Sequence record: OR532896.1
Source: Klebsiella phage RCIP0102
Length of the DNA stretch: 64,000 nucleotides
Strand: one strand, 5' to 3'
Under the pieces are notes generated by a model. That model did no database searches. It saw only the letters and a list, made by a program, of their open reading frames with translations, and was not told where the DNA came from. Of the stretch, positions 45,820 to 45,963 are shown piece after piece (position 1 is the stretch's first letter; every line of letters begins with the position of its first letter). The position numbers were made by a program, and so were the translations under genes.

Positions 45820-45963
45820 TGGACGGTATGCCCGGCCTCGAACCGAGTCACACTGACTTTGCAGAATCCGTGTGTTTAATATATCACCCATACTCGATAG
45901 CATATCTGAACGAGACTGCAATCCCGCTACTCAGCTTACACCATCTTGTATTGTGTCATACCG
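45820..45963 (-). ncRNA. About 144-nt tRNA-like stable RNA candidate (acceptor CGGUAUG/CAUACCG, discriminator U, CCA, T-arm) with a large insertion replacing the anticodon arm
   Basis: Terminal 7-bp perfect acceptor pairing, encoded CCA, D-like stem ACAC/GUGU, T-arm CUCGG UUCGAGG CCGGG. Size similar to T4 species 1/2 RNAs. Confidence 0.45.

Follow-up and report, generated by a model that had tools for sequence, protein, structure and literature searches.

Introduction

Species 1 RNA of bacteriophage T4, encoded by rnaC, has been known since the 1970s, for some fifty years. It is processed by RNase P, and viable deletions of the T4 transfer RNA (tRNA) region exist. Paddock, Fukada, Abelson and Robertson reportedly found in 1976 that RNase III cleaves it in vitro. 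In T4, a single primary transcript of ~1.75 kb covers the tRNA cluster; it gives rise to 8 tRNAs and the species I and II RNAs and terminates after species I (PMC2330249). T4 RNAC builds up late and can be seen on Northern blots (PMC9697503). In this study, we analyzed a putative counterpart in Klebsiella phage RCIP0102 using a 64,000-nucleotide (nt) stretch of sequence record OR532896.1, hereafter called the window, to which all positions refer. The element lies at 45820-45963 on the minus strand, and the phage is a member of the JD18/KPV15 group of Klebsiella T4-like phages, genus Jiaodavirus. The original prediction, which a model made from the letters of the window, described a tRNA-like RNA whose function had not been described; this agrees with papers of 2010, 2022 and 2025, in which the function of species 1 RNA is still undescribed (PMC3014915, PMC9697503, PMC12685909). 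A paper on ModB RNAylation was rejected as a lead on rnaC, since "rnaC" is the name of a grant in that paper.

Results

Orthology with T4 species 1 RNA

Relatives of the element were collected from annotated phage genomes, IMG/VR and metagenomes, which gave 34 distinct sequences from ~12 genera or groups (Tequatrovirus, Mosigvirus, Gaprivervirus, Karamvirus, Kagamiyamavirus, Moonvirus, Tegunavirus, Gelderlandvirus, Kanagawavirus, Marfavirus, the PEi20 group and Jiaodavirus). In all, roughly 950 copies are present in the phage database. Covariance model R2 was built by leaving out the clade of the window: it contained 19 non-Jiaodavirus members only, with a consensus structure from RNAalifold. 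R2 matched exactly 45820-45963 on the minus strand over model positions 1-141, with a score of 75.1 bits and an expectation value (E) of ~2e-17. Model R1 gave the element a score of 121.9 bits. A sequence-only profile from the same alignment as R2 reached 22 bits (E 3.5e-6), compared with 75.1 bits for the covariance model, so most of the homology signal is structural. BLAST with the window element reached only relatives at ≥95% identity and missed T4 rnaC, while BLAST with T4 rnaC reached no Klebsiella phages; the homology was therefore shown by covariance models. The two RNAs also have in common a GUAAGCYGAGUAGCG...GUUCRGAUAUG block and the predicted layout. Family members are 139-144 nt long, and the window element measures 144 nt from C1 to A76 (tRNA numbering). 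All computationally testable features of the T4 species 1 RNA family were found in the window element. These results identify the window element as the Jiaodavirus orthologue of rnaC, and they uphold that half of the original prediction which proposed a counterpart of a T4 stable RNA at this position.

The family was missed by standard annotation. It is absent from Rfam, whose models left the element unmatched both in a scan of the full window at the gathering threshold and in a scan of 45700-46000 at E up to 10. ARAGORN, run over the window, called neither a tRNA nor a transfer-messenger RNA (tmRNA) at the element. A pattern scan of metagenomes returned 120 stretches, mostly chance matches, 7 of which were family members, including 4 new sequence variants. 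Two scans of viral contigs for the terminal module added the Marfavirus and PEi20 types and little more.

Layout of the element

Read on the minus strand, the RNA runs in the order CGGUAUG (1-7), A, 108 nt, CUCGG-UUCGAGG-CCGGG (117-133), CAUACCG (134-140), U and CCA (141-144). The terminal stem comprises 7 base pairs (bp), all of Watson-Crick type. One of the five pairs of the T-stem is U-G, and its loop, UUCGAGG, conforms to the U54 U55 C56 R57 A58 pattern of T-loops. There is zero spacer between the T-stem and the 3' acceptor strand, as in a tRNA. The parts of the element and its flank are as follows.

45820-45963, minus strand: predicted mature RNA of 144 nt, orthologue of rnaC/species 1 RNA, from models R2 and R1 and the minimum free energy (MFE) fold
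45957-45963, minus strand: 5' strand of the acceptor stem, CGGUAUG, positions 1-7, pairing perfectly with 45824-45830; predicted RNase P site 5' of C45963
45885-45955, minus strand: hairpin 1, positions 9-79, at the D-arm position; long and irregular, 71 nt, recovered by RNAalifold from non-Jiaodavirus members alone
45916-45921, minus strand: loop 1, UUGCAG, positions 43-48, kissing-helix partner of loop 2
45875-45884, minus strand: A/U-rich linker, positions 80-89, single-stranded in all folds and holding two family-invariant A residues (alignment columns 88 and 90)
45849-45874, minus strand: hairpin 2, positions 90-115, at the anticodon-arm position; 10-layer stem with a 6-nt loop
45859-45864, minus strand: loop 2, CUGCAA, positions 100-105, kissing-helix partner of loop 1
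45831-45847, minus strand: T-arm, CUCGG-UUCGAGG-CCGGG, positions 117-133, also flagged by an independent motif scan for T-arms outside called tRNAs
45824-45830, minus strand: 3' strand of the acceptor stem, CAUACCG, positions 134-140, seen in the sequence, the fold and the family alignment
45820-45823, minus strand: discriminator U (45823) and encoded CCA (45820-45822), read directly
45964-45969, minus strand: 6-nt spacer AAUCAU separating the element from the CCA of tRNA-Pro, a spacing typical of tRNA clusters

Direct reading of the minus strand thus confirmed the 144-nt tRNA-like RNA with a perfect acceptor stem, T-arm, discriminator U and CCA as first described. The body had been described as unlike a tRNA; ARAGORN and Rfam made no tRNA call, and hairpins occupy the D-arm and anticodon-arm positions. 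Two details of the original prediction were corrected. The 3' strand of the stem, placed 135 nt downstream, begins 133 nt after the first base. Instead of an 85-nt insertion replacing the anticodon arm, the element has a 109-nt non-tRNA body (positions 8-116), which consists of two hairpins and a 10-nt linker and lacks a D-arm; the D-arm is replaced by the long hairpin and the second hairpin stands at the anticodon position. Hairpin 1 has a base helix of 3 bp and an apical stem, contains an AG/A internal loop and a GUA bulge (45928-45930), and amounts to an interrupted duplex of ~26 bp.

We further examined whether such an arrangement exceeds chance. The MFE of the element was -50.2 kcal/mol (z = -3.49), a value equalled by none of 200 shuffles. 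A loose pattern (a 7-bp stem without mismatches, a 5-bp stem of any sequence closing a 7-nt loop, and NCCA, within a length of 100-200 nt) had one match in the window and was also present in 27 of 200 Markov-shuffled windows, so the geometry alone is only suggestive. Homology and covariation settle that the element exceeds chance.

Covariation supports a four-helix fold

Covariation was measured across the 34 distinct members on a MAFFT alignment that was not fitted to any structure. For the proposed pairs, 91.0% of cells were paired, compared with 35-46% when partners were slid, in agreement with the covariation across related phages that had been suggested as a check. The covariation score was 0.471, whereas slid controls gave 0.07-0.13 and none of 500 shuffles reached the observed value. 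Both sides had changed in 35 of 53 pairs, and every helix contributed.

Acceptor stem: 77% of cells paired; compensatory changes at 3:70, 5:68 and 6:67
Hairpin 1: 85.5% of cells paired in the lower part (20 pairs) and 96.1% in the apical stem (6 pairs); 19 pairs with changes on both sides
Hairpin 2: 98.4% of cells paired; changes on both sides in 9 of 9 pairs
T-stem: 100% of cells paired; changes on both sides in 2 pairs

Within Jiaodavirus itself, a C:G pair of hairpin 2 is swapped for U:A. The RNAalifold consensus computed without the clade of the window yielded the same four-helix architecture. When ordinary tRNAs were aligned to the covariance model, hairpin 2 took up their anticodon arm and hairpin 1 their D-arm region; the RNA is therefore seen as a tRNA scaffold in which the D-arm and anticodon arm are swapped for hairpins. 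The fold is modeled as a four-way junction, in which the 7-bp acceptor stem would stack on the T-arm and be joined by the 71-nt bent hairpin and the hairpin with the 6-nt loop.

These data bear on the reading of the element as a functionless relic, either a tRNA pseudogene in decay or a tRNA gene broken up by an insertion. Such a relic would agree with the acceptor stem and T-arm being all that remains of a tRNA and with the rejection of the element by tRNA detectors. However, the architecture of the "insert" is kept over ~12 genera, each helix shows compensatory changes, some unpaired bases never vary, and the T4 homologue is an abundant processed RNA. The covariation, the RNAalifold consensus and the R2 match effectively refute a pseudogene, to which we assign next to no probability.

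The loops of the two hairpins are complementary

In all 34 members, loop 1 (UUGNNG) is exactly complementary to loop 2 (CNNCAA) over 6 nt. The two variable positions co-vary, which gives four loop pairs.

UUGACG and CGUCAA: T4 and most genera
UUGAUG and CAUCAA: Tegunavirus
UUGGCG and CGCCAA: Marfavirus
UUGCAG and CUGCAA: the window (Jiaodavirus)

For this kissing helix alone, 100% of cells were paired, compared with 19-50% in the slid arrangement, and its two variable pairs appear as AU/CG/GC and CG/AU/UA. Duplexes of cognate loops had energies of -4.1 to -7.6 kcal/mol (-6.1 kcal/mol for the window), whereas 10 of 12 non-cognate combinations were weaker than -2.5 kcal/mol. The loops are free in 30-31 of 34 members' own MFE folds, with loop 2 wholly unpaired in 31 of 34. 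They are retained in CF-SP2, NM4.3, PEi20 and Marfavirus although the remaining sequence of hairpin 1 has diverged; the common plan of hairpin 1 is nevertheless kept there, with a helix of 4 bp, a bulge of 3-4 nt on the 5' side and an apical stem of 5 bp. Judged by base-pair counts, loop 1 could meet loop 2 only if hairpin 1 bent back on itself at its conserved AG/A internal loop and GUA bulge. We infer that the loops kiss within one molecule. The complementary loops were defined as a family feature in the present analysis and were not taken from the literature; no description of a loop-loop pairing was found in the searchable literature, a search that did not cover the papers of the 1970s.

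The conserved loop-loop helix also bears on the possibility that the RNA is a precursor or substrate, in which RNase III cuts hairpin 1 to release active fragments resembling tRNA halves, or the hairpin titrates RNase III. The interrupted duplex of ~26 bp in hairpin 1 is what such a model calls for. On the other hand, the species that was sequenced historically and detected on Northern blots of T4 is the full-length RNA, and the loop-loop helix together with the conserved T-arm argues for selection on the intact fold. We consider the RNase III model quite unlikely.

Invariant residues and lineage-specific ends

Besides the helices, certain unpaired residues are invariant across the family, U73 and C75-A76 in 34 of 34 members: A8, the bulge U (U35), two A residues of the linker, the A before the T-stem, C56, U73 and C75-A76. 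The end of the acceptor stem is more variable. In 27 of 34 members, U.U is found at both 4:69 and 5:68, and Watson-Crick pairs occur at these places only in Jiaodavirus and Tegunavirus. The terminal pairing in relatives, whose lack the original prediction had named as a refutation, held as a pairing (77% of cells, with compensatory changes); the perfect stem is not family-wide. The tandem U.U (alignment columns 4:138 and 5:137) is kept across many genera and is non-random, which points to selection. Position 74 divides the family: the majority have A there and a U-ACA tail, Tegunavirus has U and the tail U-UCA, and C with the tail U-CCA is restricted to Jiaodavirus and Marfavirus. Neither the perfect acceptor stem nor the encoded CCA is a feature of the family; both are lineage-specific.

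An aminoacylated or otherwise CCA-dependent tRNA-like RNA, comparable to tmRNA or to the tRNA-like structures of plant viruses, has to be weighed against this distribution. The window copy, with its perfect 7-bp stem, discriminator U and encoded CCA, looks like such an RNA; copies in Marfavirus also end in UCCA, and U73 and C75-A76 are invariant in the family. Most members, however, carry U-ACA and two U.U mismatches in the acceptor stem, and the window element has no G3:U70, no reading frame for a tag and no tmRNA call by ARAGORN or Rfam. The triplet GCA in loop 2, which resembles a Cys anticodon, is lineage-specific and would be consumed by the kissing helix. A CCA-dependent role is thus very unlikely. 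A cysteine-tRNA-like reading based on U73 and the GCA of loop 2 was likewise tried and rejected, since the triplet co-varies with loop 1 and is found in one lineage.

Three IMG/VR contigs that form one lineage (L012, L030 and L034; ~148-175 kb) showed a change of the T-loop from UUCGAAU to UGCAUGC. In the same lineage, a conserved unpaired GG near the junction has become CG alongside the T-loop change. Judging from this one lineage, the GG (G75 and G76 of the window element, before the 3' strand of the base helix of hairpin 1) could make a contact with the T-loop like that of G18/G19. The two changes could also be coincidental, or the GG could form non-canonical pairs inside its own internal loop.

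Open reading frames over the element

Open reading frames (ORFs) of 38 amino acids on the minus strand and of 55 and 31 amino acids on the plus strand overlap the element in the window. Many GenBank records of Jiaodavirus and Marfavirus place one or two "hypothetical protein" coding sequences (CDSs) over the RNA, some with ribosome-binding sites, and none of these records annotates an RNA. A small protein-coding gene could be argued from these ORFs and annotations. No reading frame is open throughout the family, and the substitutions are pairwise-compensatory and not codon-patterned. Stops occur in all six frames in T4 and Yersinia phage TG1, which refutes the protein-coding reading and leaves it a negligible probability. 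The overlapping "hypothetical protein" CDSs are spurious.

Genomic context and distribution

The element begins 6 nt past the CCA of tRNA-Pro (45970) and shares its strand with all 16 tRNAs of the minus-strand cluster. No promoter-like or terminator-like site was seen between tRNA-Pro and the element, and a small CDS begins at 45794, 25 nt downstream. In other genera, rnaC is usually located between tRNAs. In VR7 and mogra, an rnaD-rnaC pair occurs without a tRNA in the examined flanks (330-400 nt on each side), and in Kosakonia phage 305, rnaC directly follows a CDS with no tRNA within 330-400 nt on each side.

This context is relevant to the possibility that the element is cis-acting, tRNA-like punctuation, which splits the upstream tRNAs from the downstream mRNA or protects the 3' end of the precursor, the excised RNA being a by-product. 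The window element indeed has a ten-tRNA block on one side and a series of small ORFs on the other, without an intervening terminator, and T4 rnaC is the final gene ahead of the terminator of the tRNA transcript. However, an ordinary tRNA already does the same, and tRNA-Pro ends 6 nt upstream. In other phages, rnaC lies between two tRNAs or has no tRNA in the examined flanks, and T4 RNAC accumulates as a discrete RNA detectable on Northern blots. Punctuation also leaves unexplained the 109-nt body, the 35 co-varying pairs, the loop-loop helix and the invariant unpaired residues. We regard it as fairly unlikely.

The rnaC family is confined to T4-like phages of enterobacterial hosts. On the tRNA clusters of Aeromonas phages (Biquartavirus and Ishigurovirus), a KVP40-like Vibrio phage, Pseudomonas phage Milchi and a Stenotrophomonas phage, the rnaC models gave only weak matches to ordinary tRNAs. 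Serratia phage X20 contained no family member in a search with filters off, which returned weak hits to ordinary tRNAs at most.

Several further observations were made in the flanks and the clusters. Just 3' of the RNA, the 8-nt sequence CACUUGCC (window 45805-45819, minus strand; T4 L001 ~2889-2905) is common to the window and T4. In T4, CACUUGCC forms the 5' half of a hairpin, CACUUGCC-UUGG-CAGGUG, at the end of the tRNA transcript; in the window, the 3' half of this hairpin is lost and the sequence continues into a CDS. Over-long features annotated as "tRNA-OTHER" were noticed in the tRNA clusters of Aeromonas phage 65.2 (L172 6691-6808, 118 nt) and Pseudomonas phage Milchi (L174 4711-4904, 194 nt). 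They were unmatched by the rnaC model; they may be tRNAs with introns or oversized tRNA-like RNAs of another kind. The window cluster also holds two uncalled gaps on the minus strand, 46950-47179 (230 nt) and 46713-46873 (161 nt), with an insignificant match to the rnaD profile at 47111-47158 (E 0.31).

Other tRNA-like elements of the window

A second element, at 43288-43413 on the minus strand, immediately precedes tRNA-Arg. Its terminal stem is UGUUCAG/CUGAACA, its T-arm is GCAGG-UUCGAGU-CCUGC, and its D-arm (GUUGAAAUCGGUAGAC) is class-II-like. It lacks CCA, and its MFE gave a z of only -0.32. BLAST with 43283-43420 found it conserved at ≥95% in Jiaodavirus and at ~83% in Karamvirus and Erwinia phage COW86c, and in no T4-type phage. 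Some Jiaodavirus records carry an internal replacement in it. The original prediction had taken this element for a counterpart of a T4 stable RNA as well, and neither BLAST nor an nhmmer profile of rnaD supported it as species 2. The profile, built from T4, mogra and VR7, had its best match in the window at E 0.089, outside 43288-43413, in a test at the sequence level only. A paralogy with 45820-45963 was also rejected, and the rnaC model gave no match.

The 3' end of rnaD reads CACCA in T4 (L001 3054-3172), CACCG in mogra (L170 ~207-325) and CACCU in VR7 (L167 ~207-325). The CCA is not conserved, and species 2 RNA therefore probably ends in ...GCGCACC and not in a tRNA-type CCA.

Two more candidates were noticed on the minus strand. 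The first, 43001-43111, of ~108 nt, is located in the 121-nt gap between tRNA-Leu and tRNA-Thr; its ends pair as GAAGAAU...AUUCUUC and are followed by A-CCA. It has no T-loop and a weak fold (z = -1.43) and could be a further processed small RNA. The second, 42836-42911, just downstream of tRNA-Thr, scored 20.5 bits with the Rfam tRNA model (threshold 29), and ARAGORN made no call. It has a T-arm GUAGG-UUCGAUU-CCUAC, an acceptor-like stem GGUAUG/CAUACC and an aberrant anticodon region, and it lacks CCA.

Discussion

Comparison with known RNAs

T4 rnaC (RNA C, T4s001; NC_000866 70908-71046) resembles the window element in its four-helix layout, GUA bulge, AG/A internal loop and T-arm, in its position in the tRNA cluster on the tRNA strand, in having CACUUGCC downstream, and in an undescribed function. 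The two differ at several points. T4 has A3:U70 and two U.U mismatches, whereas the window stem is perfect with G3:C70; T4 ends in UACA and the window in UCCA; and the loops are UUGACG/CGUCAA in T4 and UUGCAG/CUGCAA in the window. The RNA is ~140 nt long in T4 compared with 144 nt in the window, where the lower part of hairpin 1 is longer, and the gene order is rnaD-rnaC-terminator in T4 and tRNA-Pro-element-ORFs in the window. Compared with T4 rnaC, the window RNA is a variant whose acceptor end is truly tRNA-like.

With canonical tRNA (RF00005), the element shares the 7-bp acceptor stem, a 5-bp T-stem with a 7-nt loop of UUCRA type, the discriminator, CCA and the spacing. It lacks a D-arm and a 5-bp/7-nt anticodon arm, in place of which are hairpins of 71 and 26 nt that pair with each other. 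The tRNA-like domain of tmRNA is similar in that a mimic of the acceptor and T-arm is set on a non-tRNA body with tertiary pairings and is processed by the tRNA machinery, as predicted for the element; the element, however, has G3:C70 and not G3:U70, lacks a tag reading frame or resume codon, and is far smaller. YrlA (RF02553) is also a non-coding RNA with a tRNA-mimicking module, and some YrlA RNAs are phage-encoded. In YrlA, the two termini pair into the Ro-binding stem with the tRNA-like part inside, whereas the ends of the element form the acceptor stem, and the YrlA model had no match in 45700-46000 at E up to 10. The identities as tRNA, tmRNA and YrlA were all rejected, as the window element lacks defining features of each. 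Kissing through all 6 (or 7) loop nucleotides is known from TAR-TAR* of human immunodeficiency virus and from ColE1 RNA I/RNA II, where it is intermolecular and serves regulation or dimerization. The element resembles these in its fully paired 6-nt loops and differs in that both loops belong to one tRNA-shaped RNA, whether they pair within or between molecules.

Proposed processing and function

The element would be transcribed within the precursor of the minus-strand tRNA cluster. Its acceptor/T minihelix, the U at -1 and the 3' UCCA should make it a good substrate of RNase P, with a predicted cut 5' of C45963. The 3' exonucleases would then trim to the encoded UCCA and halt at CCA (45820), as for host tRNAs, leaving the 144-nt RNA, in which pairing of loop 1 (UUGCAG) with loop 2 (CUGCAA) may close the body into a ring. 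These steps are modeled on T4 and on the rules for tRNAs. Taken together, the identity, fold and processing are in our view highly probable.

The element cannot decode because it has no anticodon loop. The co-varying fold, the invariant unpaired bases and the survival of rnaC away from tRNAs argue for a trans-acting RNA and not a by-product or relic. Our preferred reading is that such an RNA would mimic the acceptor end of a tRNA and thereby occupy or distract a protein that recognizes the acceptor/T minihelix. Candidates include enzymes that process or modify tRNAs and host effectors directed against tRNA ends. This decoy function, suggested by the shape of the RNA, is put forward tentatively and is in itself doubtful.

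Several points weigh against the interpretation given here. CCA and the perfect stem are not conserved; if the mechanism required a genuine CCA end, most relatives would have to add CCA after transcription. Serratia phage X20 and more distant T4-like phages lack the family, so a T4-like life cycle does not in general require it. Three independent lineage changes carry the case for the kissing helix, its steric fit was estimated from base-pair counts alone, and the loops could pair between two molecules as a dimer instead of within one. The ends of the window-phage RNA are placed by T4 and tRNA rules. Nothing indicates a specific target for a decoy proposed from shape, and the papers cited on the function of species 1 RNA describe no partner or phenotype for any member of the rnaC family.

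A role in the conflict between phage and host has a precedent at the same locus. In the T-even tRNA/segB locus, tRNA-Tyr overcomes Septu and tRNA genes act as counter-defence (PMC13096335); that paper says nothing on stable RNAs (PMC13096335). Since tRNA genes of the same T-even locus serve counter-defence, a role of rnaC in host-phage conflict is plausible and testable. In a bolder form, rnaC would represent an unrecognized fold, a "closed cloverleaf" whose D and anticodon arms are locked by a 6-bp kissing helix, used by T-even-type phages in trans as a decoy of the acceptor end. Its target could be a host immune effector acting on tRNA 3' ends or acceptor stems, or an enzyme of tRNA maturation. 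We rate this bolder form as rather improbable. If it were true, the CCA-bearing, perfectly paired versions of Jiaodavirus and Marfavirus would be variants tuned to Klebsiella targets.

What is new at the level of the family is its breadth, a secondary structure backed by covariation, and the kissing loops. The co-varying loop-loop pairing offers a precise handle for mutate-and-rescue experiments, and the natural variants with and without a true CCA and with and without acceptor mismatches show on which features the function may rest and on which it cannot. Across hundreds of therapeutic-phage genomes, rnaC is unannotated or misannotated as small proteins. These findings show that rnaC is not peculiar to T4 and constitutes a structured RNA family of about a dozen genera of enterobacterial T4-like phages.

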